Assembly (NCBI GenBank): GCA_041665505.1
Contig: JBAYIR010000004.1
Location: forward strand, 6,797-70,796
Length of the DNA stretch: 64,000 bases
Direction: 5' to 3'
From: Patescibacteria group bacterium
GTDB lineage: Bacteria; Patescibacteriota; Patescibacteriia; UBA1558; GWA2-36-10
Below the pieces are notes generated by a model. It was not told where the DNA came from and made no database searches. It saw only the letters and a list, made by a program, of their open reading frames with translations. The position numbers were made by a program, and so were the translations under genes. The stretch's first letter is position 1. Each line of letters opens with the position of its first letter. Of this stretch, positions 23,578 through 56,150 are shown in pieces.

Positions 23578-23607
23578 TTATATTTTTTTAATAGCAAATT
23601 AAATAAA

Positions 23608-23631
23608 CCGTCCTCAAGTGGCGGTTTTTTT
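23608..23631 (+). terminator. rho-independent terminator of rmuC (ccgtc ctcaagt ggcgg + T7)
   Basis: 5-bp stem (one G-U) followed by ttttttt. Confidence 0.4.
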
Positions 23632-23677
23632 GGGACGGCGGGATTGCCTGGTGGCAATCCCGCCGTCATGCTCTGTG

Positions 23678-24061
23678 CTACGCGTGGCAGAATTGAGCTG
23701 CCACCAGCCGACCCAGGCCATCACTGGCCCAGTTGATGCTGTGGGTTTCCCATTGCCATTGGAAGCCCCTCCGCATTACCAGATCATACATCATTGGGCT
23801 GGCTACTACCGCCACCGGATTGATGTTTAGTGGCCATTCATCACCTTCGCTATCTCCAGCAAATATGAGAGTAGCAATGCCGAGCAGTGTGCCCTTCGGC
23901 AAGTACTGGTTGACGCCACGCCAGGTGGCTCTTCCGTCATCCATTTGGAAGATAGCGATATCAAAGGGATAAATATTGTCCCTTGCGGTGTAAGTAGAAG
24001 TGATGTCTTCTTCCATTTGGAACCAGGGCAGCTGATTGATCTGGATATTCTGGGTGTTCAT
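23678..24061 (-). CDS. hypothetical protein encoded in GC-rich island A (start at second Met, preceded by GGAGGT SD)
   Basis: 127-aa ORF MNTQNIQINQLPWF...; GGAGG 5 nt upstream of the ATG; GC content far above the backbone; no family recognised. Confidence 0.4.
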   Translation of the reverse strand: MNTQNIQINQLPWFQMEEDITSTYTARDNIYPFDIAIFQMDDGRATWRGVNQYLPKGTLLGIATLIFAGDSEGDEWPLNINPVAVVASPMMYDLVMRRGFQWQWETHSINWASDGLGRLVAAQFCHA

Positions 24062-24355
24062 GACAACCTCCATCAGTTATCGCACTGATTGGGCGTGACA
24101 GGGTTGAACTGTCAGGGGGTGGATGCTGCTCGTAGCAAATTCAATGAGCAGCACATTAGTTTCCATTAGTTGAAAAATACTGTGCTACCCATTGATATTT
24201 AATGTGAAAGAGCTAGATTAATATAGAATTATAGCATATTTTGTTTATTTTGTCAATGTTTAGTAGTATATAGTAGCTAGTATAATATTAAAAAAGTATT
24301 GACTTTTTCAAGTTTAGCGGTTATAATGTAGCCGCTTTTTGTTTATTATAAATTT

Positions 24356-31420: not shown

Positions 31421-31870
31421 ATGAATTTTACAGTGCCTAATGATAAACTAGGAAAACATGAATGCCCACTAGCAGTTATCAAGTGTGTTGATTTTAGATT
31501 TCGTGAATCTGATCAAGAATTTGTAGTTAAAGGTTTGGGTTTTGAGGATTTTGATTTGTATGCTTGGCCAGGTAGTGCCAAAGATGTTTTGAAAAATAAT
31601 GGTTTCAAAGTATCTTTTATTGAAAAAATTGTAGCAATTTCCAAAAATCTACATAATGTAAAAAAACTTTTACTCTTATGGAATTGGGACAGCGATGTTT
31701 ATGGTAGTAGTAAGAATTTTTTAGATAGTAGTGTGGAAGAGCAAACTTATATCAAAGATTTGCAAACAGTCAGAGAGATGCTACTTAAAGAATTGCCAGA
31801 TGATCTAGAAATTATTATGGCTTATTCCAAATTAGTGCCTCAAGGTTTGGATTACATTGTAGTAGAATAA
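31421..31870 (+). CDS. hypothetical protein between atpC and the complex-I-like module
   Basis: 149-aa ORF, no TM, three Cys; no family recognised. Confidence 0.3.
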   Translation: MNFTVPNDKLGKHECPLAVIKCVDFRFRESDQEFVVKGLGFEDFDLYAWPGSAKDVLKNNGFKVSFIEKIVAISKNLHNVKKLLLLWNWDSDVYGSSKNFLDSSVEEQTYIKDLQTVREMLLKELPDDLEIIMAYSKLVPQGLDYIVVE

Positions 31871-31965: not shown

Positions 31966-32508
31966 ATGATTAAACTTTTTTTAAAAATAATCAAAACTTC
32001 CCAAAATACTATTAAGGTTGATGAGTTTGATAGTGATGGAATAAAATTTGAATCACTTGGTAAAAAGACGAGATCCAAAATCACACATTTATTTGGTGGA
32101 TCTTTGGCTATCAGACAAATAGATGCTGGTTCAGATAATTCAGCTGAACAAGAGCTAGTCGCTTTATCCAATACTTTTTATGATTTGGAGCGTTTTGGTA
32201 TTCATTTTGTAGCTTCCCCTAAACATGCTGATATGCTCTTTGTCACTGGTCCAGTGACACGCAATATGGCTGAAGCTCTTCGCCGAGCGTATGAGGCTAC
32301 ACCCGACCCAAAGATTGTAGTGGCTGTTGGTGATGATGCTATCAGTGGAGGTATATACAAAGGTTCTTATGCTATTGTGGGTGCGGTTAGTGATGTTTTG
32401 CCGGTGGATTTTTCTATCCCCGGAGATCCGCCATCACCTAAAGTCATTCTTGGTCACTTACTTCGTATTATGAAGGAATTAGAAAATCAGTCATTCAAAA
32501 AGAAATAA
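31966..32508 (+). CDS. NuoB / hydrogenase small-subunit (HycG/EchC)-like protein with all [4Fe-4S] cysteine ligands replaced; protein contains no Cys
   Basis: FGIHFVASPKHADMLFVTGPVTRNMAEALRRAYEATPDPKIVVAVGDDAISGG...IPGDPPSP aligns to NuoB ..SPRQADVMIVAGT..KMAP.LR..Y.QMPEPK.VI.MGSCANGGG...PGCPP with C->D/S/L. Confidence 0.7.
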   Translation: MIKLFLKIIKTSQNTIKVDEFDSDGIKFESLGKKTRSKITHLFGGSLAIRQIDAGSDNSAEQELVALSNTFYDLERFGIHFVASPKHADMLFVTGPVTRNMAEALRRAYEATPDPKIVVAVGDDAISGGIYKGSYAIVGAVSDVLPVDFSIPGDPPSPKVILGHLLRIMKELENQSFKKK

Positions 32509-32509
32509 T

Positions 32510-34555
32510 ATGTTAGAACTAGCAGCATCTTCTATTGGTCTGGTCATTTTAATAGGGTTATTTACTGTTGGAGCAGTAGGCTCATTATTTTTGAGAACAG
32601 ATAAGCCAGCTAATGTTTGGAGTAGTTTTTTTGCTATTATCGGCTCTGTTTGGGGTATATTATTTGCCAGTCTGGTATTCTTTTTCAACCGGGAAATTAT
32701 TTTTTCCTTGACTTCAAGTATTTTTCCACTTTTGTCATTTTCATTTCATATTGATAAGTTAGCTAGTTTTTTTATTTTTACTATTTCACTCATTGCCTTA
32801 TTTTGCTCTATTTATGGGGCTGGTTATATCAAACATTTTTATAAAAAATATGACATTGGTGCTTTTGGATTTTTCTACCACCTGTTTATTTTAGGAATGA
32901 TTTCAGTAGTTATAGCGGCCAATGCTTTATTTTTTTTGCTAGCCTGGGAAATGATGTCTTTAGCCTCATATTTTTTGGTAGTTTATGATCGACATGATAC
33001 GCATAATGTAAAAGCTGGGTTTTTATATTTAGTTATGACTCATGTTGCTACAGCTTTTATTATTGTGGCCTTTTTACTACTGTATAAATTTACTGGGTCA
33101 TTTGATTTTGCTTTAATTCGCTCTAATGCCGAGTTGATTCCTCTCTGGTTAAAAAATACTGTTTTTGTGTTGACCTTAATTGGTTTCGGTACCAAAGCCG
33201 GTATTATACCATTTCATATCTGGTTACCTAGTGCTCATCCAGCTGCACCTTCGCATGTCAGCGCCCTTATGTCTGGTGTCATGATAAAAACTGGTATTTA
33301 CATGATGATTAGAATTTTTTTGGATTTATTACAGCCAGTGCCAGCTTGGTGGGGGCTTACTTTACTAGTAATTGGCTCAGTGTCATCTTTACTAGGTGTT
33401 CTTTACGCTTTGACTGAGCATGATATCAAGAAACTACTGGCTTATCATAGTATTGAAAACATTGGTATAATTTTATTGGGTTTAGGTAGTGCCTTAACTT
33501 TTTATTCTTTGGGGATGCCGTCTTTCGCTTTATTGGGGTTAGTAGCCGCGCTTTTTCACACTTTAAATCACGCTACTTTTAAATCACTATTGTTTTTGAG
33601 TGCTGGTTCAGTAATCAATCAAACGCACACGCGCAACATGGAAGATTATGGTGGTTTGATTAGGTACATGCCCCAGACAGCAGTTTTCTTTTTGATTGGC
33701 TCAATGGCAATTTCCGGCTTGCCTCCTTTCAATGGATTTTTTAGTGAGTGGCTCACTTTTCAGGCTTTGTTTCAAGGTATTATGCATTTTGCCATGATGG
33801 AGAAATCAATTTTTCTTTTGGCCGCAGGTGCCTTGGCTTTTACCGGTGGTTTAGCTTTAGCTTGCTTTGTTAAAGCTTTTGGTGTGATATTTTTGGCCAG
33901 ACCAAGAACTAAAGAAGCAGCTAACTCTCAAGAATCAGCTTGGTCTTTGCGTGTGGGTATGGCATCATTAGCTATATTGTGCTTATTATTTGGCTTATTT
34001 TCTGGCTCGCTAGTATCTTGGTTTACCAGAGTGGCTAATGGTCTAAGAATTTTTCAAGGTATTAATTCTTTTGTATCATCGCCAACTAATCAAATATTGG
34101 TTGCCGACAATAACTTTGCTTCCGTATCGGCCGCTGGTATTCTAGCTTTTTTACTTATCGTCTTGGTGTTAGTGCTTTTGGTATTCAAATATGTTATTCA
34201 TCGCCAACAAAAAATAAAAGTTGGTGCTACTTGGGATTGTGGAGTTGATTTGACTCCGCGAATGGAGATAACTGCTACTGGTTTTGCAAGATCAATTATT
34301 TTGATTTTTAAAGGAGTATTGAGACCTAGTATTCAGCGTGAGGTTGAATATCATGATTCGCAAACTCGCTATTTACCAAAAACTATTACAGTGGTGTCAG
34401 GTATCAATAATGTATATCAGCAATATTTTTATCAGCCTTTGTCCAAAAATGTTATTGCATTTGCACAGTCTGTCAGAAAAATTCAGAATGGTAATGTTAA
34501 TCTTTACATTTTATATATTTTTATTGCTTTAATTATTCTATTATTTTTTGTATAA
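32510..34555 (+). CDS. NuoL/MrpA/HyfB-like antiporter-type membrane subunit
   Basis: About 16 TM helices; motifs HIWLPSAHPAAPSHVSALMSGVMIKTGIY and LLAYHSIENIG typical of complex I antiporter-like subunits. Confidence 0.7.
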   Translation: MLELAASSIGLVILIGLFTVGAVGSLFLRTDKPANVWSSFFAIIGSVWGILFASLVFFFNREIIFSLTSSIFPLLSFSFHIDKLASFFIFTISLIALFCSIYGAGYIKHFYKKYDIGAFGFFYHLFILGMISVVIAANALFFLLAWEMMSLASYFLVVYDRHDTHNVKAGFLYLVMTHVATAFIIVAFLLLYKFTGSFDFALIRSNAELIPLWLKNTVFVLTLIGFGTKAGIIPFHIWLPSAHPAAPSHVSALMSGVMIKTGIYMMIRIFLDLLQPVPAWWGLTLLVIGSVSSLLGVLYALTEHDIKKLLAYHSIENIGIILLGLGSALTFYSLGMPSFALLGLVAALFHTLNHATFKSLLFLSAGSVINQTHTRNMEDYGGLIRYMPQTAVFFLIGSMAISGLPPFNGFFSEWLTFQALFQGIMHFAMMEKSIFLLAAGALAFTGGLALACFVKAFGVIFLARPRTKEAANSQESAWSLRVGMASLAILCLLFGLFSGSLVSWFTRVANGLRIFQGINSFVSSPTNQILVADNNFASVSAAGILAFLLIVLVLVLLVFKYVIHRQQKIKVGATWDCGVDLTPRMEITATGFARSIILIFKGVLRPSIQREVEYHDSQTRYLPKTITVVSGINNVYQQYFYQPLSKNVIAFAQSVRKIQNGNVNLYILYIFIALIILLFFV

Positions 34556-34557
34556 GT

Positions 34558-35490
34558 ATGATGATTTTTATTTGGATGTTACAAATTATTTTGGTGCCAG
34601 CTATTTCTCCGTTAGCCATTGGTCTAATTAATAAAATCAAGGCTCGATTACAAAATCGTCGAGGAGCAAGTATTTTCCAGCCTTATAAGGATATTTGGAA
34701 ATTATTGCACAAAGATGAAGTAGTAAGTCGTGATGCTTCTTGGATTTTTTATTATGCGCCTTATATAGTATTTACTATCACTTTGATTTTAGCAGGCAGC
34801 CTTCCTTTATTTGCCTCATTTTTGAATAATATTATGACTGGCGATTTATTGACGATTGTTTATTTGATTGCTTTTGGTACTTTCTTTTTGGCACTAGCAG
34901 GCTTAGATATTGGTGGAGCTTTTGGTGGTTTCGGTTCTAGTCGTGAAATGACCATATCAGCTTTGGCTGAGGGGGGATTGATTTTTTCTTTATTGGCTGT
35001 AGCTATAAATGTCGGCACTAGCAATCTTTTTGAGATGTCTACTCTTGGTTTTTCATTTTATGATCAACATCTTTTACCAACACTACTAGCCTTAGCTGGA
35101 TTTTTTGTGGTATTGCTCGCAGAAGCAGCTCGTTTTCCTTTTGATAATCCAGCTACTCATTTAGAGCTAACTATGGTTCACGAGGCTATGATTTTAGAAT
35201 ACTCTGGTAAAAGATTAGCTTTAATGGAGTGGTCGGCTGCTAATAAGCTGATTTGTTTTATTGCTATTGGTGCTAATATTTTTTTCCCTTGGGGTTTGGC
35301 TACTAGTGTAGGAGTCAGTGTTTTGATATTAAGTTTAATAATATTTATTTTAAAAATATTTATTTTTTGTGCAGTCATAGCTTTGATTGAATCCAGTATG
35401 GCGAAATTTAGATTTTTTCGTCTGCCAGATTTACTCTTTATTTCTTTTATTCTTAGCGTGATGGCCATCAGCCTCACCCAAATATTATGA
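34558..35490 (+). CDS. NuoH/HycD-like membrane subunit
   Basis: RRGASIFQPYKDIWKLLHKDEV matches the HycD/NuoH N-terminal pattern; 8 TM. Confidence 0.65.
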   Translation: MMIFIWMLQIILVPAISPLAIGLINKIKARLQNRRGASIFQPYKDIWKLLHKDEVVSRDASWIFYYAPYIVFTITLILAGSLPLFASFLNNIMTGDLLTIVYLIAFGTFFLALAGLDIGGAFGGFGSSREMTISALAEGGLIFSLLAVAINVGTSNLFEMSTLGFSFYDQHLLPTLLALAGFFVVLLAEAARFPFDNPATHLELTMVHEAMILEYSGKRLALMEWSAANKLICFIAIGANIFFPWGLATSVGVSVLILSLIIFILKIFIFCAVIALIESSMAKFRFFRLPDLLFISFILSVMAISLTQIL

Positions 35491-36134
35491 GTTTATTTAT
35501 TTCACAATTTTTATTAGCAATTATTTTTCTCACGATTGTTTTTTTGCATGGTGCCAAAAAAAATATGGGAGCAGTGCTTGCTTATAGATTGCAGTCATTA
35601 GCGGTAGTAGCTTTTACATTTAGCTCTTTTTTGGAGACTAGAGATATACTTTTACTTATTGTCTGTTTAGTTATCTTTATAGTAAAAGTTATTTTTGCGC
35701 CAATGTTTTTAGCACGTTTGATTAAAAAACATAAACTTACTTATTCGGTCAGTTCTTACCTCAATGCACCTCTGACTTTGATCATGATCGCCATTTTTAC
35801 TGCTATTGCTTATTCACAAAAATTTGTGCCTTTAACCAATCTCATGCCTGGCCATCAGACATTATTACATCTAGCTCTAGCTTCAATTTTTCTTTCTCTC
35901 TTTTTGATAGTCAATCGCAAAGGTGTGCTCTCTCAGATTATTGGTGTGTTGTCGCTAGAAAACAGTATAGTGACTTTTGTTTTTTATGCTGGTTTGGAGC
36001 AATCACATAGTTTGCAGCTAGGTATTTTATTTGATATTTTTATTTGGATTATTATTGCTATTGTATTTATGTCTATGATTTATCGCCACTATGATTCTTT
36101 GGATGTCAGTCGAATGAAGCAATTAAAAGATTAA
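35487..36134 (+). CDS. HyfE/NuoK-like small membrane subunit
   Basis: 215-aa polytopic protein with IGVLSLENSIVTF motif, located between the NuoH-like and NuoN-like genes as hyfE is in hyf operons. Confidence 0.4.
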   Translation: MSLFISQFLLAIIFLTIVFLHGAKKNMGAVLAYRLQSLAVVAFTFSSFLETRDILLLIVCLVIFIVKVIFAPMFLARLIKKHKLTYSVSSYLNAPLTLIMIAIFTAIAYSQKFVPLTNLMPGHQTLLHLALASIFLSLFLIVNRKGVLSQIIGVLSLENSIVTFVFYAGLEQSHSLQLGILFDIFIWIIIAIVFMSMIYRHYDSLDVSRMKQLKD

Positions 36135-36139
36135 CGCAT

Positions 36140-37582
36140 ATGGAATTACTATTTATTTTTTTACCATTATTAATTGCGGTTTTAGTGGGCTTGCTATCCA
36201 GACAAAGACTACTTATTGAAATTACTTCTGGTGTCGCTATAGGTCTTGCTTTTATTGCAACTATTTTAATAGCTCAAAATGTAGCTGCTTTTGACAGTTA
36301 TAGTCCTTGGCCTATTTTTTCTGTTGATGCACTAGGGGCTATAGTAATGCTTATTATTGCTTGTGTTGGTTTGATGGCTAGTATTTATTCTATTCCGTAT
36401 TTGCGCCAGGAAAGTGCTAAAGGTATCATTGGCTTTACTAGAGTTAGACAATATTTTAATTTATTGAATTTGTTTTTGGCCGTTATGTTTTTTGCCGTGA
36501 CCGCTAGCAATCCAGTAATGACTTGGATTGCCATAGAGCTAACTACTTTATCAACGGCTTTTCTGATTAGTTTTTACAATAAAGCTTCATCTATTGAAGG
36601 AGCTTGGAAATATTTAATTATTAATTCAGTTGGCTTGTTATTGGCATTTTTTGGGACCTTGTTATATTTGACTTCATTAGGAATAAATAGTGATAGTACT
36701 TTTGCTACTTGGAGCGCTTTACTGACTAATGCTCACAATCTAGATCCTCTGATTGCCAAACTAGCTTTTATTTTTGTTTTTATCGGCTATGGTGTTAAAG
36801 TTGGTCTTGCCCCAATGCATACTTGGCTACCTGATGCACATAGTAAATCACCAGCACCAATTAGTGCGCTTCTTTCGGGGGTACTTTTAAATGTTGCTTT
36901 TTTTACGGTGTTAAAATTTAAAATTATCACAGATGTGTCTGTCGGAGGGACGTTCTCAAGTACTATATTGATTAGCTTTGGCTTGTTGTCTATATTTATA
37001 GCAGCCATGATTATTCTGGTCCAAAAAAGTTACAAGCGACTATTGGCTTATTCTAGTATTGAAAATATGGGGATTATGTCACTTGGTTTTGGCTTTGGTG
37101 GCTTTGGTGGTTTTGGCGCTATTCTTCATATGCTATATCATTCGTTTATAAAATCAGCTCTATTTTTACTATCGGGTAATTTTTTACTCAAGTATAGCTC
37201 TGCTAAAATTAAAAACGTGCGTGGTGCTTTATTAGTTATGCCTCTGGCTAGCGTCCTGTTTCTAGTGGGGATTTTTGCTATTGCTGGTGTTCCGCCTTTT
37301 GGTATTTTTTTAACTAAATTATTTATTATCAGTGCAGGCATGTCTACTTATCCTATTGTTAGTATTGTCGCTGTAATTTTATTTTCCGTGGCTTTTGTTG
37401 GTTTATTTAAGCATGCTGGAGCTATGATTTTTGGTGAGCCGTCAGCTGAGATGAAGAAAGAAAAAGAAAATATTTGGTTGATTTTACCATCATTGGTTTT
37501 ACTGTTAACAATTTTCTTTTTGAGTTTTCAGCTGCCAAATTTTTTGTCAGTATTAATTAATGAAGCAGTTAAAGGGTATTAA
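36140..37582 (+). CDS. NuoN/NuoM/MrpD-like antiporter-type membrane subunit
   Basis: HTWLPDAHSKSPAPISALLSGVLLNVAFF and LLAYSSIENMG motifs. Confidence 0.7.
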   Translation: MELLFIFLPLLIAVLVGLLSRQRLLIEITSGVAIGLAFIATILIAQNVAAFDSYSPWPIFSVDALGAIVMLIIACVGLMASIYSIPYLRQESAKGIIGFTRVRQYFNLLNLFLAVMFFAVTASNPVMTWIAIELTTLSTAFLISFYNKASSIEGAWKYLIINSVGLLLAFFGTLLYLTSLGINSDSTFATWSALLTNAHNLDPLIAKLAFIFVFIGYGVKVGLAPMHTWLPDAHSKSPAPISALLSGVLLNVAFFTVLKFKIITDVSVGGTFSSTILISFGLLSIFIAAMIILVQKSYKRLLAYSSIENMGIMSLGFGFGGFGGFGAILHMLYHSFIKSALFLLSGNFLLKYSSAKIKNVRGALLVMPLASVLFLVGIFAIAGVPPFGIFLTKLFIISAGMSTYPIVSIVAVILFSVAFVGLFKHAGAMIFGEPSAEMKKEKENIWLILPSLVLLLTIFFLSFQLPNFLSVLINEAVKGY

Positions 37583-37585
37583 TAT

Positions 37586-39154
37586 ATGAATAAAGAAATA
37601 ATTAAACAATATTTACCAGACAATGTTGATGTGAATTTTTTTGCCAACGTCGCTGTCTTTGAAATAGCTACAGCCAATATTAAAGAAGTAGTAAATTTTT
37701 TGCGTAATGACAAAAATCTTTCATTGAAGTTGGTTACAGCTACCGATGAGCGCAAAGATAGTCATTGTTTTAAAATTTGGTATGTTTTTGGCCTACCTAA
37801 AGAAAATATATTTATTGTGCCTTTTATTAAATTAGAAGATACTTTGGAATTTCCTTCGGTCGCTTTGGCCTGCCAAGAAGCTTTGAATTATGAGCGTAAG
37901 ATCCAAACTTTTTTTGGTTTAGTACCAGTGGGACATACTGATCCTAGGTCTATTATTTTGCATGAAAATTGGCCAGCTAATATTTTCCCTTTGAGAAAAG
38001 ATTTTGACTGGCAATCCAGACCAGCTGTAGTCGAAGGGACTTATCAATTTAATCGGGTCAAGGGCGAGGGGATATATGAGATACCAGTCGGTCCTATTCA
38101 CGCTGGTATTATTGAGCCAGGGCATTTTCGTTTTAGCGTGGCTGGAGAAACTATAGTGTCATTAGAACCGCGTTTGGGTTTCACACACAAAGGTAGTGAA
38201 AAGTTGTTTGAACATTTTTCATTAGCCGATAGTGTGCGACTGGCTGAAAAAATTTCTGGTGACAGCTCTCTTAGTCACTCTTTGGCTTTTTGTCAGACCA
38301 TAGAGAGTTTAGCTGATTTGAAATTGCCAAAGCGGGCTGCTTATTTGCGGGTCATTTTTGCTGAGCTAGAGCGTCTAGCCAATCACTTTGGCGATATTGG
38401 GGCTATTATGCTGGACACGGGATTTAATTTTGGTGGTGCGCAAGGATCAAGATTGCGTGAGATGATTATGCAAATTAACGAGCGTTTGACTGGTAGTAGA
38501 TTTTTGCGTTCAGTCAATACTATTGGTGGAGTGCAAAAAGATTTAACAGAGGCTGAAATAAGCCAGCTAGCCAAAAGCTTAGAGATAATAGCCAAAGATT
38601 TTTCTGAAGTCATAGAAATTGCTGAAAATAGTTCATCATTAGTCAATCGTCTTCAAGACACTGGTAAGCTTACTCAGGCTTTTGCTAAAAGTCATGGCGT
38701 AGTTGGTGTGGCGGCTAGAGCTACTGGTATCGGATGTGATACGCGGGCTGATTTTCCTTATGCCGCTTATCAAGAATTATTTTTAGATAGAATTGAAACA
38801 GAAAACACTGGTGATGTTTGCGCACGATTTTATGTCCGCATCAAAGAAGTCAGAGCGTCCATAGCTATAATTGATGGTGCTTTGAAAGCTATACCTAAGG
38901 GACTCATCAAAACTAGTGATACTATTGTTCTCAAAAAAAATGCTTGTGCTATAGCTCTGGTAGAGGGTTGGCGAGGAGAGATTTTGTATTTTATCACCAC
39001 CGACGCGCAAGGGCAGATTAGTAGAGTTGTACCTCGTGATCCTTCTTTTCTGAATTGGAATGTCTTGGGTAAAGTTGGTGTAAATAATATAGTACCAGAT
39101 TTTCCTTTGATTAATAAAAGTTTTAATTTGTCCTATACGGGTAATGATTTGTAG
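37586..39154 (+). CDS. NuoC-NuoD fusion / HycE-like large subunit lacking both NiFe-binding CxxC motifs
   Basis: NuoC-like ALNYERKIQTFFGLVPVGHTDPRSIIL; NuoD-like VGPIHAGIIEPGHFRF...GFTHKGSEKLFE; N-terminal RxCGxC position reads RLAEKISGD; C-terminal DPCxxCxxH position reads DPSFLNWNV. Confidence 0.7.
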   Translation: MNKEIIKQYLPDNVDVNFFANVAVFEIATANIKEVVNFLRNDKNLSLKLVTATDERKDSHCFKIWYVFGLPKENIFIVPFIKLEDTLEFPSVALACQEALNYERKIQTFFGLVPVGHTDPRSIILHENWPANIFPLRKDFDWQSRPAVVEGTYQFNRVKGEGIYEIPVGPIHAGIIEPGHFRFSVAGETIVSLEPRLGFTHKGSEKLFEHFSLADSVRLAEKISGDSSLSHSLAFCQTIESLADLKLPKRAAYLRVIFAELERLANHFGDIGAIMLDTGFNFGGAQGSRLREMIMQINERLTGSRFLRSVNTIGGVQKDLTEAEISQLAKSLEIIAKDFSEVIEIAENSSSLVNRLQDTGKLTQAFAKSHGVVGVAARATGIGCDTRADFPYAAYQELFLDRIETENTGDVCARFYVRIKEVRASIAIIDGALKAIPKGLIKTSDTIVLKKNACAIALVEGWRGEILYFITTDAQGQISRVVPRDPSFLNWNVLGKVGVNNIVPDFPLINKSFNLSYTGNDL

Positions 39155-39205
39155 ATGTTAGTATAAGAGGTCATGTTAGACATAGTAAAAATTTTATATT
39201 TTTAT

Positions 39206-39233
39206 AAAAACCCCCTATTTTAGGGGGTTTTTA
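39206..39233 (+). terminator. strong rho-independent terminator ending the atp/complex-I-like transcription unit
   Basis: aaaaaccccctattttagggggttttt; 7-bp G/C stem flanked by A/T runs (bidirectional in appearance). Confidence 0.7.
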
Positions 39234-39379
39234 AAATTTTATATATTGACTATTTGGCTAAGGTATGATACAATTTTCCTTCATTATAGAATGTGCTATT
39301 AGAAGCTCAGTTAAAATAAGATGTAATAAATTACCAATTATTTTATCTGGGCTGCTAGTCAGCTCAATTAGTTCAATTC

Positions 39380-39925
39380 ATGACAGGACTGTCTTCTACA
39401 GGAGGTTGGCTCTTGAATAAGTGTTACGATGCCACTGGCGCCCCGTGCATGGATGGAGATTATTTTCCGCTTTTTCATGCGAAAGTAATCTCCATGTGTG
39501 GTCGGCTTGTTGACTTACTCCCTCAACCTGGGGGTGCCAAAACCCTCAGAACAGCCAATCTCTCGGCTCATGAGTTTGCCGGCAGATTCGTCAGCGTTTC
39601 TGTCGCCAAGCATGGTATCAGAACTATCGTCATTGGCACCCACCTTCAATGTGCCGCCTACGAGAAGTTTGGGCTTTCTTTGTCCGAAGAAGAAGCACTC
39701 CAGCGCCAGCATATTGAGAGAGCAGTTCGCTTTCTTAATGATTACGTCCCGATGGGGATCCAACACTACCTCAAGGAGGAAAAACTTCCCGAGCATGAAG
39801 TGCAGAACTTGGAGACCGTTTTGGAGAGCGGTATAATCATCCAAGCTCTGCTCATCAAGCCGTACGATATGTCGCGGCGCATCAAGGAACCTTCTGAAGA
39901 GTGTTTTGTGGAGCAAGTGCTCTGA
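39380..39925 (+). CDS. hypothetical protein encoded in GC-rich island B (alternative TTG start at 39413 preceded by AGGAGG with a 7-nt spacer)
   Basis: 170-181 aa ORF; GC content far above the backbone; canonical SD; followed by its own terminator; no family recognised. Confidence 0.4.
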   Translation: MTGLSSTGGWLLNKCYDATGAPCMDGDYFPLFHAKVISMCGRLVDLLPQPGGAKTLRTANLSAHEFAGRFVSVSVAKHGIRTIVIGTHLQCAAYEKFGLSLSEEEALQRQHIERAVRFLNDYVPMGIQHYLKEEKLPEHEVQNLETVLESGIIIQALLIKPYDMSRRIKEPSEECFVEQVL

Positions 39926-40010
39926 CCTACAATGTCCTTTTCATTTTTGTTGCCACCGCCCTTATCACTGGTGGCCCAGTTCTATACTTCTGCCCAAGCG
40001 CGGGCAGGGG

Positions 40011-40047
40011 ACTCTCGTCTTTAGAGGGCAGACGAGAGTTTTTTTTA
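40011..40047 (+). terminator. rho-independent terminator after the island B gene
   Basis: actctcgtc tttagagggca gacgagagt + ttttttttt (perfect 9-bp stem + T9); preceded by a second hairpin ctgcccaagcgcgggcag. Confidence 0.7.
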
Positions 40048-40080
40048 CTTTTGATTTTTCTATTGTTATGCGCTAAAATT

Positions 40081-43053
40081 ATGTATATGCCAATGGACTT
40101 AAATTACTTAAATAAAGCACAAAAACAAGCCGTTAGCCATGATCAGGGGCCGGCTATTTTAATAGCTGGGGCTGGTACTGGTAAAACTACAGTTATCACT
40201 TCTCGCATTGCTTATTTGATAGAGCAAAAAAAAGCTCAGCCAGATGAAATATTAGCTGTTACTTTTACTGAAAAAGCGGCTGGTGAGTTGGCGGAGCGAG
40301 TAGATAAGCTTTTGCCTTTGGGCTATAGTGATTTATGGATTCATACTTTTCATGGTTTTGCGGAAAAGGTTTTGAAAAACTATGCTTTGGAAATTGGTTT
40401 GTCCAATGATTTCAAATTATTAGATCAAACTGCCGCTTGGGTTTTGCTTAGAGAAAATTTGGACAAGTTTGATTTGGATTATTACGCCCCTTTGGGTAAT
40501 CCCACCAAATTTATTCACGCTTTGCTCAGTCATTTTTCTCGGCTGAAAGACGAAGTAGTTTATCCAGCAGAGTATCTCAAATATGCTCAAGATTTACATC
40601 TAGATACTGATCAAGCTGGTGATAGAGAGGAAAGAGCTATGGAAGTAGCTAGAGTGAGAGAAGTAGCCAATGCTTATCATGTTTACCAAGAGCTACTTTT
40701 GGAAAAGAATGCTTTGGATTTTGGTGATTTGATAAATTATACTTTGGAACTTTTCAAAAAGCGTCCGCAGATTTTGAAAAAATTTAGGCAGCAATTTAAA
40801 TATATTTTGGTGGATGAGTTTCAAGATACCAACTGGGCTCAGTATGAACTGATAAAGATTTTAGCTGCTCCAAAAAATAATGTCATGGTGGTTGGTGATG
40901 ATGATCAAGCTATTTATAAATTTCGGGGAGCAGCCATATCAAATATTTTAAATTTTAAAAAAGATTATAGTAGTCGGAAGTCCACCTCTGCTAAGGCTTC
41001 GGTAAAGACTCAACCGGCGCTTTGTGAGATTTTTTTAAATGACAATTATCGCAGTGGTCAGAAGATATTGGATACAGCTTATAATTTCATTCAGCAAAAT
41101 GATCCAGATAGATTGGAATATCAATATAAAAAGAAAAAAACTCCGCTCAATAAAAAACTTAAGAGTCATAGCACTAGTGATGGTTCAGTAGATGTTATTT
41201 CCTTTGTGGATAAAAACGCAGAAATAGATGGCATCTTGGCCAAGATAATAGATCTAAAACAAAAAGACAAAGAAGCTACTTGGTCTGATTTTGCTATACT
41301 AGTCAGAGCCAATGATCAAGCTCAAGGCTTTGTGTCTATGATGAGAAAAATAGGTATTCCTCATCAATTTATGGCTTCCCGTGGTCTTTATGCTCAGGAT
41401 ATTGTCCAAGATATTATGGCTTATTTGAAATTATTGGATAATTATCATGAGTCGTCCGCTTTTTTTAGAATATTATCTTTACCTATTACTGGTTTAAATA
41501 TTGAGACTATTATTAATCTCAATCACTTAGCTGGCAAAAAAGCTTGGAGTTTATATTATACGGCCAAAGTTTTTCGCCAACATATCAATTTGCCCTTGGC
41601 AGACCAAAAAATAATTGATAAAATAATTTTAGATATTGATAAGCACACCAAATTGTCCAAAGAGCAGCCCGTTTCCCAAGTAGTCTACAATTGGTTAGAG
41701 GATAGTGGTTATCTCAATATGTTGACTTTGGAGCAAAATCAATATAATAAAGACCAGTTGCATTTCCTCAATCAATTTTATAGAAAAATAAGAGCTTGGG
41801 AAGAAGAGTCTATTGAAGATACTTCTACTCATAATTTTTTGGAGACACTGGAGATGGAAATCCAATCAGGAGAAATGGGGGCAATGCAGTTTGATGCTGA
41901 AGCTGGGCCGGATGTAGTCAAAGTCATGACTGTCCACGGAGCCAAAGGCTTGGAATTTAAATATGTTTTTATTAGCAATTTAGTCCATTTGAGATTTCCT
42001 TCGACTGAGCGTCGTGATCCAATAGAGGTGCCTGATACTTTCATTAAAGAAGATTTACCATCAGGTGATGCTCATTTACAAGAAGAGCGTCGTTTGTTTT
42101 ATGTGGCTATGACTAGAGCCAAAGAAAAAGTCTATCTGACTTGGGCTAAAAATTATGGCGGAGCTACTAGTAAAAAACCATCTCGTTTTATAGATGAAAT
42201 TGCTATTTTGAGTCAAGAAATAAATACTCCTATTAAAGAACCAAGTAAGATTAATACCAAAAAAAGTAAAGCTAATTATCCTATCCCAAAAATATTTTCT
42301 TTTTCTCAGTTAAGGGCTTATGAAGCTTGTCCTTGGCAGTATTTTTATAATTTTATAGCCAAGATACCGACCAAAGGTAGTGCGCATTTTAGTTTTGGTA
42401 AGACTATGCACTCTACCTTACAGAAATTTTATCAATTAATCATCAATAATTCTGAACTAGGACAAGGCGACTTATTTTCTAAGGATAAAAAAATAGTCAT
42501 GCCGGGTGAAAAAGAGCTATTGGCTTTTTATGAAGAGTCTTGGATTGATGATTGGTATGAGAGCGACAGCCAAAAACAAAAATATTATCAAGATGGTATT
42601 CGTATTCTGAAGGATTATTATAAGCAGTATAAAGATAATTTTCCCATACCTTTGTTTTTGGAAAAAGGTTTTACTATCAAAATAAAAGATTATAGTCTGC
42701 GGGGTGTTTTTGATAGAGTAGATACTGACAAGACTGCTTGGAAAATAATTGATTACAAAACTGGTCAAGCTAAAGATAAACTGACTTTTGAAGATAAAAA
42801 ACAGCTGCTCATTTATCAGATTGCAGCTGAAGAAGTATTTAAACAGCCTGTCAAAGAACTTACTTTTTTTTATCTTAGCAACAACAGTGCAGTGTCATTT
42901 GTGGGTAGTGAAAAAGAAATAACTAAAGTCAAAGATTGGATAAAAACGACTATTGATAATATTAACAGTCATGATTTTACCGCTACACCAGGTCATGTCT
43001 GCGCCACTTGTGATTTTAGGTCAATTTGCCCTTATGCTAAATTGAATAAATAA
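40081..43053 (+). CDS. UvrD/PcrA-family SF1 helicase fused to a C-terminal Cas4/RecB-like PD-(D/E)xK nuclease domain with four conserved Cys (AdnB/AddB-like architecture)
   Basis: Walker A AGAGTGKTTVIT; motifs VDEFQDTN, VMTVHGAKGLEF; C-terminus CPWQYFYNFI...DYKTG...C..C..C (CATCDFRSICPY). Confidence 0.75.
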   Translation: MYMPMDLNYLNKAQKQAVSHDQGPAILIAGAGTGKTTVITSRIAYLIEQKKAQPDEILAVTFTEKAAGELAERVDKLLPLGYSDLWIHTFHGFAEKVLKNYALEIGLSNDFKLLDQTAAWVLLRENLDKFDLDYYAPLGNPTKFIHALLSHFSRLKDEVVYPAEYLKYAQDLHLDTDQAGDREERAMEVARVREVANAYHVYQELLLEKNALDFGDLINYTLELFKKRPQILKKFRQQFKYILVDEFQDTNWAQYELIKILAAPKNNVMVVGDDDQAIYKFRGAAISNILNFKKDYSSRKSTSAKASVKTQPALCEIFLNDNYRSGQKILDTAYNFIQQNDPDRLEYQYKKKKTPLNKKLKSHSTSDGSVDVISFVDKNAEIDGILAKIIDLKQKDKEATWSDFAILVRANDQAQGFVSMMRKIGIPHQFMASRGLYAQDIVQDIMAYLKLLDNYHESSAFFRILSLPITGLNIETIINLNHLAGKKAWSLYYTAKVFRQHINLPLADQKIIDKIILDIDKHTKLSKEQPVSQVVYNWLEDSGYLNMLTLEQNQYNKDQLHFLNQFYRKIRAWEEESIEDTSTHNFLETLEMEIQSGEMGAMQFDAEAGPDVVKVMTVHGAKGLEFKYVFISNLVHLRFPSTERRDPIEVPDTFIKEDLPSGDAHLQEERRLFYVAMTRAKEKVYLTWAKNYGGATSKKPSRFIDEIAILSQEINTPIKEPSKINTKKSKANYPIPKIFSFSQLRAYEACPWQYFYNFIAKIPTKGSAHFSFGKTMHSTLQKFYQLIINNSELGQGDLFSKDKKIVMPGEKELLAFYEESWIDDWYESDSQKQKYYQDGIRILKDYYKQYKDNFPIPLFLEKGFTIKIKDYSLRGVFDRVDTDKTAWKIIDYKTGQAKDKLTFEDKKQLLIYQIAAEEVFKQPVKELTFFYLSNNSAVSFVGSEKEITKVKDWIKTTIDNINSHDFTATPGHVCATCDFRSICPYAKLNK

Positions 43054-43351: not shown

Positions 43352-43419
43352 GTTCATTTGAAATAAAATATTTTTAGAAGGAATTGTCCGTCACTGTTCA
43401 CTCGCACAGGGAGGTAGTC

Positions 43420-43707
43420 ATGTCTGAAGCCGTCGCTTACATCAAAATCATTGATACTCCTTCGGGAGAGGAAAACCTGCTCGCGCGTCATGAGTTTCAA
43501 GACTTGGTCTTACCGACCATCACCCCCAACGGTCAGCAAGTTGGCTACTACGTCGTCTATCTTTTGGATGCTCTGCCCATCATCAACGCGGAGCGCCCAC
43601 TCTTGGCCGAATGGCTCAAAGAGAAGTATCCAGAAGAGCAAGATCGCTCTAGTATCCGTCTCATTTTTGAGGCAACAGTCTGCCAAGAGACGATGGCCTT
43701 GGTATAG
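43420..43707 (+). CDS. hypothetical protein encoded in GC-rich island C (AGGGAGG SD 6 nt upstream)
   Basis: 95-aa ORF MSEAVAYIKIIDTPSGEENLL...; GC content far above the backbone; no family recognised. Confidence 0.4.
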   Translation: MSEAVAYIKIIDTPSGEENLLARHEFQDLVLPTITPNGQQVGYYVVYLLDALPIINAERPLLAEWLKEKYPEEQDRSSIRLIFEATVCQETMALV

Positions 43708-43735
43708 CAGATAGCAACGCTCGGCTGATGACAGT

Positions 43736-43766
43736 GGCGAAGCTGGGTTCAAACCCCAGCTTCGCC
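43736..43766 (+). terminator. 12-bp perfect hairpin (ggcgaagctggg ttcaaac cccagcttcgcc) after the island C gene
   Basis: Perfect inverted repeat; loop resembles a tRNA T-loop; weak downstream U-tract. Confidence 0.45.
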
Positions 43767-43815
43767 TCCTACTAAAAGTATTTTATTTGGAGCTTAATTT
43801 ACTTACTTACGAGGA

Positions 43816-44313
43816 GTGGGATTGATTTTTCAGGCTTTTTTTAGTATTATTCATATCAATGGATATCATAAAAGACTATCTGGCAGTAAAATAAATATTA
43901 ATTTTTTAAAGAGGGTGAATATCAGATCTTACAATATTATAATGTTACTAGCCACTGTTTTAGCGTGGCTGGGATTTTTTATAATTATCAACAGTTTTGA
44001 TCCTACCGAAGGCTCTTGGTTGGTTTATGCAATGTTTTATAGTATTTTATTTTTGAGCATTTTGGGTACGCTGTCTTTGATTGGTTTTTTGTCTCGTAGT
44101 ATTTTTAATCACAAAAAATCTAGGCCTAGACTTTTGGCTATTGAGTCTTTCCGTCAAGCCATTATATTTTCCGCTGTTTTAATCTTAGCTTTGATGCTTC
44201 AAGCCGGACGCATCTTGACTTGGTGGAATATGACTCTACTGATTGTCTTAGCCACGGTATTAGAATTTGTGATATTAGTTTTTCGTCAAAATGAAGAAGA
44301 TATAAAAAAGTAA
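43816..44313 (+). CDS. hypothetical membrane protein (4 TM)
   Basis: ORF with hydrophobic helices; no family recognised. Confidence 0.3.
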   Translation: MGLIFQAFFSIIHINGYHKRLSGSKININFLKRVNIRSYNIIMLLATVLAWLGFFIIINSFDPTEGSWLVYAMFYSILFLSILGTLSLIGFLSRSIFNHKKSRPRLLAIESFRQAIIFSAVLILALMLQAGRILTWWNMTLLIVLATVLEFVILVFRQNEEDIKK

Positions 44314-55548: not shown

Positions 55549-55608
55549 TTTAGTTAAGTAAAGTATAGCATATAAAAAAAATATGTCAATATTTTTAAAA
55601 AAAGGAAA

Positions 55609-55633
55609 CCCGCCGCGTCAGACGCGGCGGGTT
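55609..55633 (-). terminator. rho-independent terminator of the island D two-gene unit (minus strand)
   Basis: acccgccgcg tcaga cgcggcgggt 10-bp stem followed on the minus strand by ttcctttttttaaaaa. Confidence 0.6.
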
Positions 55634-55658
55634 CAAACAGCGTGTCGTGGTCGATAGT

Positions 55659-55883
55659 TTAGCGACCACGCAAGCCAAGACGAGCTCTCTGTCGGAGCAG
55701 CTGCAGGTGAGCAAGGCGGGGATTGTTGGGCCGACTGACTGGTGGGCAGTCGCGACAGCGGAAAGGGTGAAGTACTGAGACGCTTTTGGTCTTAGGCTCT
55801 CCTTTCAAGACTGTCAAGCGACCCAAGCTGTCTTGACGGAATGTCCGCCTACAGCCCCCGATACACAGGAGTAGTGTGGGCAT
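55659..55883 (-). CDS. small Cys-containing, Arg-rich hypothetical protein (island D, gene 2; AGGAGG SD overlaps the upstream stop)
   Basis: 74 aa with CIGGC...CRDC; AGGAGG 5 nt before the ATG; GC-rich. Confidence 0.3.
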   Translation of the reverse strand: MPTLLLCIGGCRRTFRQDSLGRLTVLKGEPKTKSVSVLHPFRCRDCPPVSRPNNPRLAHLQLLRQRARLGLRGR

Positions 55884-55892
55884 GAAGACCTC

Positions 55893-56099: not shown

Positions 56100-56150
56100 A
56101 TTAAGCCTTTCGGTTTTGGGTATTTTGTCGTCTCTTAGGTGCTTGCTTAT

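Follow-up and report, generated by a model that had tools for sequence, protein, structure and literature searches.

Members of the beta-carbonic anhydrase (beta-CA) superfamily bind zinc through Cys-His-Cys ligands (PMC3230598) and carry an Asp-Arg dyad two and four residues past the first Cys (PMC3230598, PMC13144422). In DabA2, which is found next to the NuoL-like DabB2, a Cys2His zinc site is likewise accompanied by an Asp-Arg dyad, and the dyad mutant R355A impairs the enzyme (PMC13144422). For Pfam family PF20393 (Pro_CA_2), our literature search found nothing, including biochemical data for any member, and it returned nothing relevant on carbonic anhydrase in Patescibacteria or on GC islands in CPR. 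Loci of a different kind, e.g., O-antigen or capsule clusters, are hypervariable and of atypical G+C content between conserved flanks. Here, we describe a gene from a 64,000-nucleotide stretch of Patescibacteria DNA (the window) that invites comparison with all of these. It encodes a divergent Pro_CA_2 protein, referred to below as CAx, and fills a GC-rich patch, island B, that is a resident, lineage-conserved gene and no recent foreign insertion.

The limits of island B were set by merging 150-nt windows of more than 46% G+C. The resulting 728-nt stretch (39347-40074) has 49% G+C compared to 35.1% for the whole window, in which just three comparable stretches occur elsewhere (23561-24191, 43368-43828, and 55557-56148). 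Within the coding sequence (G+C of 0.499, z 6.0), the z-scores were 2.5 for GC1, 0.7 for GC2, and 9.7 for GC3 (0.55, against 0.258±0.030 and a maximum of 0.33 in the 54 other window genes), indicating that the G+C excess lies mostly at synonymous positions. An earlier note on this DNA had described the composition jump as akin to that of island A, which the GC3 z-score of the latter (11.6) bears out, and had suggested a tetranucleotide outlier check, in which 39401-40100 ranked first among 634 windows (z 5.1). The composition-normalised dinucleotide signature of the island was unremarkable (rank 230 of 634). Its adenine and T contents are 0.24 and 0.26, and its G+C skew is about 0, unlike that of host genes.

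Island B is a real single-gene transcription unit, complete with its own promoter, structured 5′ leader, AGGAGG motif, TTG start, 170-aa ORF, 3′ hairpins, and terminator, as expected from the earlier description of a stand-alone gene. The features of the unit and its immediate borders are as follows.

39205-39233, + strand: intrinsic terminator of the upstream complex-I-like operon (13-pair stem, T tail, dG -18.1).
39246-39274, + strand: sigma-70-type promoter of CAx (TTGACT, 17 nt, TACAAT, extended TG; 10 of 12 consensus matches).
39304-39353, + strand: leader stem-loop, conserved, 19 bp, in a 5′ UTR of ~130 nt.
39400-39405, + strand: Shine-Dalgarno sequence AGGAGG, 7 nt 5′ of the TTG start.
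39413-39925, + strand: coding sequence of the divergent beta-carbonic-anhydrase-like protein (Pro_CA_2), 170 aa, TTG start.
39452-39496, + strand: hairpin within the coding sequence, codons 14 to 28 (dG -22.5, z -6.2).
39952-40008, + strand: two 3′-UTR hairpins (GCCACCG..CGGUGGC and CUGCCC-AAGCGC-GGGCAG).
40009-40047, + strand: intrinsic terminator of CAx (12-pair stem with 10 Watson-Crick and 2 G-U pairs, 9-nt loop, T8; dG -16, z -3.5).
40051-40079, + strand: promoter of the helicase-nuclease gene (TTGATT, 17 nt, TAAAAT), conserved in all relatives.

The 181-aa ORF at 39380-39925 is present in the sequence, and the internal, in-frame TTG at 39413 had already been put forward as its true start. 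Comparative data agree: CAGGAGGTT is invariant in four loci and AGGAGGT is found in all eight that were aligned, the aligned start codon of relatives is TTG or GTG, and protein conservation begins only downstream of it, all of which favors the TTG start. The residues QEV in the annotated N termini of relatives are the Shine-Dalgarno sequence translated in frame. In the NCBI record, the gene appears as a shorter, 158-aa version named "carbonic anhydrase." Since the true start lies 11 codons 5′ of the first zinc ligand, this public call loses that ligand, and our analysis corrects it to the TTG-started protein of 170 aa.

The TTGACT and TAnAAT elements of the CAx promoter are conserved in the related loci L001, L003, and L010 and also in L011 to L013. 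The upstream operon terminator, previously placed at 39206-39233, was recovered one nucleotide longer, and its homologue in relatives (aligned with L001) stands directly 3′ of a 149-aa Pro_CA_2 paralogue. The terminator of CAx itself exists as claimed, although the "9-bp/T9" given for it is only approximate; its stem pairs 40009-40020 with 40030-40041, is kept in L001 and L023, and was overlooked by the terminator scanner because of the 9-nt loop. The helicase promoter sets the downstream limit of the unit. Two other statements about this border call for revision. The GC-rich ORF is not fused in frame with the helicase, since the ORF at 39901-43053 lies in a different frame and is the helicase frame extended upstream. 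In addition, the proposed helicase start at 40081 would lie 1 nt past the -10 box TAAAAT (40074-40079), while the M(x)DL of relatives begins 6 to 7 nt past it, making the ATG at 40087, or possibly 40093, likelier.

RNA structure is a recurrent feature of the transcript. RNAalifold applied to eight relatives recovered the leader hairpin with 94% of cells paired, compared to 34 to 45% when the sequences were slid, and with compensatory changes in 8 of 19 pairs (dG -18.7, z -4.5); this stem-loop may act as an mRNA stabiliser or regulator. For the hairpin within the coding sequence, 74% of cells were paired in eight relatives versus 47 to 54% when slid, and seven pairs showed compensatory changes, with a register that drifts between sequences, so that its conservation is suggestive only. 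The 3′ end with its three hairpins is highly conserved within the subclade: the block 39951-40047 is nearly identical in the window, L001, and L023, with a window-L001 dS of ~1 in the coding sequence. The extra hairpin reported earlier, ctgcccaagcgcgggcag, was found here at 39989-40008 (dG -12.3). A whole-transcript folding z-score of -9.2 was discounted because the shuffling blends the AT-rich leader with the GC-rich body, and synonymous-codon shuffles of the coding sequence alone were used instead; these gave minimum free energy z-scores averaging -2.5 for 10 CAx orthologues, -4.9 for the window copy, and -1.1 for the 149-aa paralogue (30 shuffles; the sequences are related). Rfam returned no match at gathering score in the whole window and only chance-level terminator-type matches for the 5′ leader and 3′ UTR at E up to 1, and no known RNA family was found above chance in islands A to D.

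The product of the gene, previously given as unknown, is a Pfam PF20393 beta-carbonic-anhydrase-like protein. Homology and structure searches, both suggested in the earlier note, yielded a Pro_CA_2 match (34.1 bits, E 3.7e-8; gathering score of 30 bits), which is also precomputed for all six close homologues, and a predicted structure that matches the beta-CA fold. According to hhalign, CAx is related to the 149-aa paralogue with 99.6% probability (E 8e-24). In 170-aa numbering, residues C12, H77, and C80, corresponding to the zinc ligands, and D14 do not vary among 13 CAx sequences that are only 21 to 75% identical to the window protein, and when aligned to 6Y04, these residues fall on its C-x-D-x-R and H-x-x-C motifs. 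The predicted model, least certain at residues 1 to 25 (pLDDT below 50), the stretch holding the first Cys ligand, shows a beta-CA fold with Cys-His-Cys ligands and a catalytic Asp, and the protein is under purifying selection. A PDB sequence search with the close-homologue profile gave nothing, and a combined profile gave beta-CA matches at E 0.7 to 1.2, which are not significant alone; PHROGs, NCBIfam, and PADLOC had no match for any island ORF. The dyad Arg is missing in every CAx sequence, its position being taken by D, A, K, or L (Asp in the window protein), and the 149-aa paralogue retains the dyad motif as C-V-D-F-R. Activity is therefore probably altered, and given that mutation of this Arg impairs related enzymes, CAx may not be an active carbonic anhydrase. 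CAx would bind zinc and act on CO2/HCO3- or a related small molecule; it may also dimerize with the 149-aa paralogue and possibly works together with ion-translocating machinery.

The surroundings of CAx were compared across relatives, for which two further features of the window are needed.

31421-31870, + strand: canonical 149-aa Pro_CA_2 paralogue (tblastn identity of 78 to 81% to relatives; Pfam score of 29.9 bits).
31966-39154, + strand: complex-I / group-4-hydrogenase-like operon of six genes, which by Pfam are NuoB, NuoL-like, NuoH, NuoK-like, NuoN/M-like, and NuoC+D.

The earlier note had island B as an insertion separating the complex-I-like operon from the helicase gene, and it named the nuoCD-helicase junction of relatives as the place to check. 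CAx occupies the same slot in all relatives found, being conserved and syntenic in 14 of 14 distinct related loci. The note itself had listed this outcome as refuting its claim, and an insertion is not supported. The order atpC, 149-aa paralogue, CAx holds in every one of these Patescibacteria loci, with the paralogue as immediate upstream neighbor of CAx in 12 of the 13 others. A UvrD/PD-(D/E)XK helicase gene follows within ~900 nt 3′ of CAx in 11 of the 12 loci that reach past it and is adjacent in most; in L016, a methyltransferase gene lies between the two. The 7.2-kb Nuo operon that separates the paralogues in the window is absent from all 13 other loci, and it is this operon that is the actual extra segment in this genome. 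In L019, a CsoSCA_cat gene stands between the paralogues. In this Parcubacteria/Patescibacteria clade, the CAx/149-aa pair lies after the F1Fo ATP-synthase operon, and the slot between the paralogues would have captured a NuoL-containing operon here and a CsoSCA-like gene in L019. The 149-aa copy of the window is without the His and Cys zinc ligands (WNWDSDVYG versus WHWDCGAYG). Among 1.84 billion representatives, the homologue search gave only 38 matches, and every close one with a contig examined was in the same slot. Phage, plasmid, and IMG/VR viral sets held no copy of CAx; flanking direct repeats, tRNA, and mobility genes were not found at island B, nor were repeats of the island elsewhere in the window.

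CAx falls into deeply divergent classes between conserved flanks, with identities of 26 to 75% compared to 72 to 87% for flanking genes. Between L003 and L016, the 149-aa protein is 87% and the helicase 84% identical while CAx is only 27% identical, and between the window and L015, the values are 86% for the helicase and 39% for CAx. Such incongruent identities fit replacement better than simple vertical descent. The dN of CAx is 4 to 6 times that of its flanks in the window-L015 pair and about 1 times in the window-L001 pair. Its dN/dS is 0.11 for L003-L010 and 0.135 for window-L001, where dS is ~1.05; dS ranges from 1 to above 3 between lineages and is saturated in the more distant pairs. 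Compared with the flanks, dS was 0.44 versus 0.49 to 0.81 in one case and 1.05 versus 1.54 to 1.67 in another, and since synonymous divergence in CAx is below and not above that of its flanks, local hypermutation was discarded. Diversification of the DGR type was discarded as well: there is no template-like repeat in the window, no adenine-specific depletion, and no reverse transcriptase was seen nearby. The G+C excess is a stable property of CAx in every lineage examined, GC3 being above that of flanking genes in 14 of 14 loci (by +0.12 to +0.45) and ranging from 0.37 to 0.72 by lineage. Polarised synonymous changes were roughly balanced, with 14 W>S and 8 S>W, or 10 and 14, respectively, with another outgroup.

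Taken together, it is likely that CAx is a resident, divergent Pro_CA_2 paralogue in its own transcription unit, whose lineage-stable GC excess may, with low confidence, come from mRNA selection. Recent horizontal acquisition, in which a foreign GC-rich cassette landed downstream of the complex-I-like operon and ahead of the helicase gene, could draw on the GC3 and tetranucleotide outliers (z 9.7 and rank 1 of 634), on the gene's own promoter and terminator, on the three other islands of like composition within the window, and on the absence of island A from L010 and of island C from L010 and L019. It is nevertheless highly improbable, given that each of the 14 related loci has the slot filled and that promoter, leader, and Shine-Dalgarno sequence are conserved, that the locus lacks the repeats, tRNA, and mobility genes looked for, that no donor appeared among the representatives or in the phage, plasmid, and viral sets, that the product is a paralogue of a resident neighbor, and that the segment extra to other loci is the complex-I-like operon. 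We give hardly any credence to the view that the ORF is a by-product of G+C and the region a GC-rich gene for a structured RNA or the carrier of an antisense or overlapping gene. The strong local structures, negative folding z-scores, and long antisense ORFs (133 aa in both the window and L010) would suit it, but Pfam and fold matches, zinc-ligand residues invariant across 21 to 75% identity, a dN/dS of ~0.1, the lack of an Rfam family match, and an antisense frame that is broken in L001, L013, and L015 all point to a protein-coding gene. A dual coding/antisense gene was rejected by the same survey, in which antisense frames were stop-free in six of nine orthologues and broken in those three; the long frames reflect avoidance of TTA, CTA, and TCA codons.

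Of the readings that explain composition through the history of the locus, a single ancient transfer from a GC-rich donor to the common ancestor, with incomplete amelioration that is further along in L003, L010, and L013, is unlikely. The spread of GC3 from 0.37 to 0.72 does resemble differing stages of decay, and the near-zero G+C skew is unlike that of host genes; yet none of the 14 loci has lost the excess despite saturated dS, not even in classes that are only 25 to 40% identical, no excess of S>W was seen among the polarised synonymous changes, the dinucleotide signature resembles that of the host, and no donor family was found outside this slot. Alternatively, CAx may be a hypervariable locus at which divergent alleles are swapped by homologous recombination via the conserved flanks and held by diversifying or balancing selection, the G+C coming from the allele pool and/or a hot spot of GC-biased gene conversion. 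This is rather doubtful, even though the allele classes are discrete (27% for L003-L016, 39% for window-L015), the dN ratio to flanks moves from 4 to 6 times in window-L015 to about 1 in window-L001, the island C slot of three genomes is alike in that unrelated GC-rich ORFs are enclosed by 22-nt inverted repeats that are themselves conserved, and the degree of GC-richness co-varies among islands within genomes. Against it, no GC-rich genome was seen with the locus, flanking genes hold no imported GC-rich tracts, and the composition changes sharply, at a boundary within the conserved frame of leader and terminator; moreover, GC-biased conversion in bacteria generally has effects far below a GC3 shift of 0.24, and it would be unusual for diversifying selection to act on a cytosolic carbonic-anhydrase-like enzyme.

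Returning to the reading of CAx as a resident paralogue, the G+C excess would most likely, albeit with low confidence, be kept up by mRNA selection (on structure, stability, or decoding rate), with a probable further contribution from divergent alleles that are now and then exchanged in place. In favor of such selection are the dS of CAx, lower than that of its flanks, the folding z-scores against synonymous-codon shuffles, the apparently conserved hairpin in the coding sequence, and the 3′ UTR that hardly differs among three lineages. Residual foreign composition is a less likely source. As an account of a GC3 shift of ~0.24, however, selection for RNA structure is weak. Genomes with very GC-rich CAx also hold further GC-rich small ORFs (islands A and C) and L010 has neither; this co-occurrence points to a genome-level cause, which gene-specific selection does not predict.

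In some respects, islands A and C resemble island B. Island C is framed by a conserved 22-nt inverted-repeat pair, AAAATATTTTTAGWAGGA ... TCCTWCYAAAAGTATTTT, and its ORFs in the window, L015, and L023 have no protein similarity detectable among them. We tentatively raise the possibility, more doubtful than probable, that these Patescibacteria hold a class of small single-gene units in fixed slots (islands B, A, C, and possibly D), with GC-rich interiors of ~25% each base and no strand skew that diverge or are replaced far faster than their AT-rich frames of promoter, leader, inverted repeats, and terminators. If true, ordinary horizontal transfer with amelioration would not account for such a class, and an undescribed locus-specific process would be at work, be it targeted diversification, cassette exchange, or strong RNA-level selection among genes of a special expression class.

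An apparent foreign island is here replaced by a conserved pair of canonical and divergent beta-carbonic-anhydrase-like proteins that in a Patescibacteria clade is linked to the ATP-synthase operon, a case in which a G+C jump alone is misleading for island calling. Standard amelioration theory does not predict a syntenic gene that holds a GC3 excess of 0.12 to 0.45 through saturated synonymous divergence and splits into allele classes of 26 to 75% identity while its flanks stay at 72 to 87%. Other GC-rich small genes occupy fixed slots in the same genomes; if one mechanism is common to them, it would amount to a new way in which the genomes of ultra-small bacteria evolve locally. These organisms are usually regarded as purely fermentative, and the NuoL-type operon or CsoSCA-like gene lying between the paralogues hints that they might couple CO2/bicarbonate chemistry to ion translocation.

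When set beside the described systems, CAx resembles the Cab-type beta-CAs (Methanobacterium Cab, PDB 1G5C) in its small size (~170 aa) and in its Cys-His-Cys and catalytic Asp residues within C-x-D and H-x-x-C motifs. It differs from them in having C-x-D-G-[D/A/K/L] instead of C-x-D-x-R and family-specific invariants D34, S63, and H67, and it is without a significant sequence match to solved beta-CAs. The 149-aa Pro_CA_2 type shares these three residues with CAx along with the invariant C and D. CAx is only ~20% identical to it, lacks the dyad Arg, is ~20 to 45 aa longer (with a C-terminal extension of ~40 aa relative to the paralogue), evolves several times faster (26 to 75% versus 72 to 87% identity), and has a high GC3, in contrast to the 149-aa gene with its host composition.

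As in the DAB (DabA/DabB) and cyanobacterial Cup/NDH-1 systems, a beta-CA-like gene here adjoins an operon with NuoL- and NuoN/M-like subunits (PF00361), and purely by analogy, CAx might be coupled to the NuoL-like operon. Unlike DabA, CAx is one fifth the size and without the dyad Arg; it has no DabA domain (PF10070), Pfam finding only Pro_CA_2, and the NuoL-like neighbor is particular to this genome, while the other 13 loci have ATP synthase, mostly together with the helicase. With O-antigen and capsule loci, CAx shares, as an analogy, a slot between conserved flanks that is filled by deeply divergent alleles, and a composition lastingly different from that of the genome. Those loci are multigene, build surface structures, and usually have a lower G+C content than the genome, whereas CAx is one small cytosolic enzyme-like gene of higher G+C.

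Pfam assigns the 181-aa translation of the GC-rich ORF, whose product was called unknown in the earlier note, to PF20393 (Pro_CA_2, "putative carbonic anhydrase"), the 34.1 bits exceeding the family's gathering score of 30. A word-indexed search of 5.8 billion proteins returned just six proteins, one of them the window's own product. Across 13 sequences that are 21 to 75% identical to the window protein, Y5, C12, D14, G15, D34, G40, S63, H67, H77, C80, A82, Y83, and P150 are invariant; in an alignment with a solved beta-carbonic anhydrase (beta-CA), C12-x-D14 and H77-x-x-C80 fall on its zinc-site motifs C-x-D-x-R and H-x-x-C. The beta-CA class is defined in part by the Arg of an Asp-Arg dyad (PMC3230598), a residue that DabA2 requires for its function (PMC13144422); the position of this Arg is occupied by D, A, K, or L in every member of the subfamily to which the GC-rich gene, here termed CAx, belongs. 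CAx is thus of a Pro_CA_2/beta-CA-like subfamily without the dyad Arg, and our analysis shows that it has the beta-CA fold, retains the zinc ligands and the Asp, and evolves under purifying selection (dN/dS of 0.11 between the related loci L003 and L010 and of 0.135 between the window and L001).

According to hhalign (99.6% probability, E 8e-24), CAx is a true paralogue of the 149-aa Pro_CA_2 gene found upstream in the window (31421-31870, + strand). The canonical 149-aa protein keeps C-V-D-F-R and H-W-D-C. The window's copy has lost the His and Cys ligands, i.e., two of the three zinc ligands, and reads WNWDSDVYG where seven of eight aligned relatives read WHWDCGAYG; the remaining one, L019, lacks the segment through a deletion that removes the same Cys. 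Judged by these residues, the 149-aa paralogue is probably catalytically dead in this genome, and the loss of its ligands leaves CAx as the only one of the two whose metal site is complete.

The earlier note regarded the GC-rich gene as inserted between a complex-I-like operon and a helicase-nuclease gene. The loci compared were drawn from contigs of close homologues, distant matches from an exhaustive HMM search, and genome and metagenome scans, giving 14 distinct loci with the window included, 12 of which reach beyond CAx. The order atpD-atpC, 149-aa paralogue, divergent paralogue was present in all 14, and the UvrD/PD-(D/E)XK helicase-nuclease gene followed within about 900 nt, mostly directly, in 11 of the 12. 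In L016, a methyltransferase gene lies between CAx and the helicase-nuclease gene. In the two longest loci (L015 and L019), as in the window, a 98-aa gene comes next, and pheS and pheT lie beyond it. The slot is filled in every locus and its intergenic frame is conserved, which is what the earlier note had said would refute its reading, and the insertion was rejected; CAx is shown to be the tandem partner of the canonical paralogue, adjoining the ATP-synthase operon. Some relatives carry extra GC-rich small ORFs between CAx and the helicase that have no counterpart in the window (L015 9061-9327, an 88-aa ORF of 47% G+C; L019 6531-6985, a short Cys-rich ORF). In the window, 7.5 kb separate CAx from the 149-aa paralogue upstream, a gap filled by the following segment:

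31966-39154: six-gene operon encoding NuoB, a NuoL-like protein (681 aa), NuoH, NuoK-like and NuoN/M-like proteins, and a fused NuoC+D

This Nuo-type operon occurs between the two paralogues in this genome only and is the lineage-specific segment at the locus; L019 has a CsoSCA_cat gene in its place. Visual inspection finds no CxxC nickel-iron ligand motifs in the NuoD-like subunit, which reads DPSFLNW at the position of the hydrogenase motif DPCxxC, and the operon may therefore encode a hydrogenase-related complex without a NiFe site.

The gene model of CAx rests on the following features:

39205-39233: upstream terminator
39246-39274: promoter, TTGACT-17-TAnAAT, conserved in relatives
about 130 nt: leader, conserved in relatives
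39304-39353: 19-bp hairpin within the leader
39400-39405: AGGAGG, spaced 7 nt from the in-frame TTG at 39413
39413-39925, + strand: CAx, 170 aa
40009-40047: terminator of CAx

Both terminators, the AGGAGG with its TTG, and an extra hairpin, ctgcccaagcgcgggcag, had been proposed in the earlier note and were recovered. The supposed in-frame fusion to the helicase did not hold, as the long ORF at 39901-43053 is an upstream extension of the helicase frame and differs in frame from the GC-rich ORF. Protein conservation starts at about residue 12 of the 181-aa ORF, and CAGGAGGTT is invariant at the DNA level in four relatives, with either TTG or GTG occupying the aligned position after it; the 170-aa model was adopted on these grounds. 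The "QEV" common to the relatives' called N termini is the Shine-Dalgarno sequence read in frame. The NCBI call (158 aa, "carbonic anhydrase [Patescibacteria group bacterium]") starts at Met24 and so loses the first zinc ligand, a conserved Cys. In eight sequences, 94% of the cells of the leader hairpin were paired, compared to 34 to 45% in slid controls, with compensatory changes in 8 of its 19 pairs. The gene model with its Shine-Dalgarno sequence, TTG start, and own terminator is confirmed and refined. The upstream terminator, promoter, leader, Shine-Dalgarno sequence, and non-ATG start are all kept in relatives, and CAx is shown to be a stand-alone, conserved transcription unit. For the helicase-nuclease gene, ATG 40087 is a likelier start than the 40081 claimed earlier. 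Its upstream region (40051-40095) has no Shine-Dalgarno sequence, and a conserved -10 box, TAAAAT (40074-79), lies 6 to 7 nt upstream of the start ATG in all relatives, which suggests a leaderless mRNA beginning at 40087.

Merging sliding 150-nt windows of >46% G+C yielded four long GC-rich stretches (23561-24191, 39347-40074, 43368-43828, and 55557-56148). The second, which contains CAx, spans 728 nt with 49% G+C against a window mean of 35.1%, upholding the composition jump described earlier, and its G+C skew is about 0, compared to +0.1 to +0.3 in neighbouring genes. The CAx coding sequence has a G+C of 0.499 and a GC3 of 0.55, against 0.258±0.030 (maximum 0.33) for the window's 54 other genes (z 9.7); with z of only 2.5 for GC1 and 0.7 for GC2, amino acid content does not explain the excess. 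The tetranucleotide test proposed in the earlier note placed 39401-40100 at rank 1 of 634 windows (z 5.1). In its composition-normalised dinucleotide signature, the same stretch is unexceptional (rank 230 of 634).

The excess is not confined to the window, as GC3 of CAx exceeds that of the flanking genes in 14/14 loci by +0.12 to +0.45 (mean, +0.24). Several observations speak against a residual foreign composition. Synonymous sites are at or past saturation between lineages (dS of 1.05 for window-L001 and >2.5 for window-L015 and window-L003), and in the closest trio, synonymous changes, once polarised, run about equally in both directions, with no S>W bias. An exhaustive search of 1.84 billion cluster representatives gave only 38 matches, 3 of them below E 1e-10, and each close match with a contig examined occupies the same slot; phage, plasmid, and viral collections yielded no match. 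Among the window, L001, L003, L015, and L016, identities are 72 to 87% for the 149-aa paralogue and 78 to 86% for the helicase N terminus but only 26 to 75% for CAx, which forms distinct classes: L003 and L016 are 87% and 84% identical in the flanks but 27% in CAx, and for the window and L015 the figures are 86% for the helicase and 39% for CAx. Relative to the flanks, CAx dN is about 1 times for window-L001 and 4 to 6 times for window-L015. The locus combines a persistent G+C excess with hyper-divergence in a fixed slot, features that further small GC-rich genes in these genomes appear to share at least in part.

As to the cause, constraint at the RNA level is hinted at by CAx dS below that of the flanks in both informative pairs, which also led us to reject local hypermutation as the source, and by all 10 CAx orthologue coding sequences folding better than synonymous-codon shuffles (mean z -2.5; window, -4.9; paralogue, -1.1). 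In the same direction, a strong hairpin within the coding sequence (39452-39496; dG -22.5, z -6.2) has partial covariation support. The 3' UTR block 39951-40047, about 100 nt comprising two hairpins and the terminator with GGGCAG twice, is near-identical in the window, L001 (3310-3405), and L023 (about 4125-4225), whose coding sequences are 60 to 75% identical; it is absent from the L010, L012, L013 subclade and might act as a regulatory element or give rise to a small RNA derived from the 3' UTR. A genome-level cause is hinted at by the co-occurrence of very GC-rich CAx copies with other GC-rich small ORFs in fixed slots, and by islands A and C, described below; the L010 copy has only 41% G+C, and that locus is without other such ORFs. 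Base frequencies in the coding sequences of the CAx stretch and of islands A and C are nearly equal, at about 25% each. Dual coding and DGR-type diversification were rejected. RNA-level selection, in-place allele exchange, or another locus-specific process may account for the excess.

The window's other GC-rich islands are as follows:

23561-24191, minus strand: island A, a 127/131-aa ORF (GC3 0.61) between rmuC-like and atpI-like genes
43361-43788 (L015 13187-13624; L023 7529-8051): island C, 22-nt inverted repeats and a GC-rich ORF
55557-56148, minus strand: island D, orphan ORFs only, of 100 and 74 aa

Island C occupies a slot upstream of pheS that is bounded by the 98-aa gene and a gene for a membrane protein. 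Its ORF (43420-43707; GC3 0.59) has its own Shine-Dalgarno sequence and ATG and is enclosed by the inverted repeats AAATAAAATATTTTTAGAAGGA and TCCTACTAAAAGTATTTTATTT together with a GC hairpin. In the same slot of L015 and L023, these repeats surround unrelated GC-rich ORFs, likewise with their own Shine-Dalgarno sequence and ATG; L019 has nothing in the slot, and L010 has another ORF there, which is AT-rich. The arrangement resembles a cassette or a long-range RNA stem. For the island A ORF there is a single homologue, in the same slot of L024 (65% identity, GC3 0.64), and the slot measures only 157 bp in L010; the island contains a 15-bp perfect hairpin (23634-23667) and had no match in Pfam, PHROG, NCBIfam, PADLOC, or Rfam. 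Island D, the window's most GC-rich stretch (up to 57%), has a 13-bp perfect hairpin (55607-55633) and no Rfam match, and its 100-aa ORF found no homologue besides itself in 5.8 billion proteins.

CAx would be expected to bind zinc and act on CO2/HCO3- or on a related compound (COS or CS2, for instance), probably with altered kinetics given the missing dyad Arg. Beta-CAs function as dimers, so that the two paralogues may form heterodimers. The capture between them of a NuoL-containing operon in this genome, or of a CsoSCA-like gene in L019, suggests a possible link to ion-coupled inorganic-carbon chemistry similar to that of the DAB or Cup systems. CAx is unremarkable as a carbonic-anhydrase-like gene, but its molecular evolution is puzzling. 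Membership in the DAB/Cup systems fails because CAx lacks the PF10070 domain and a NuoL-like neighbour is found in one genome only; the likeness to these systems lies in the pairing, in this genome, of a CA-like gene with a captured NuoL-containing operon.
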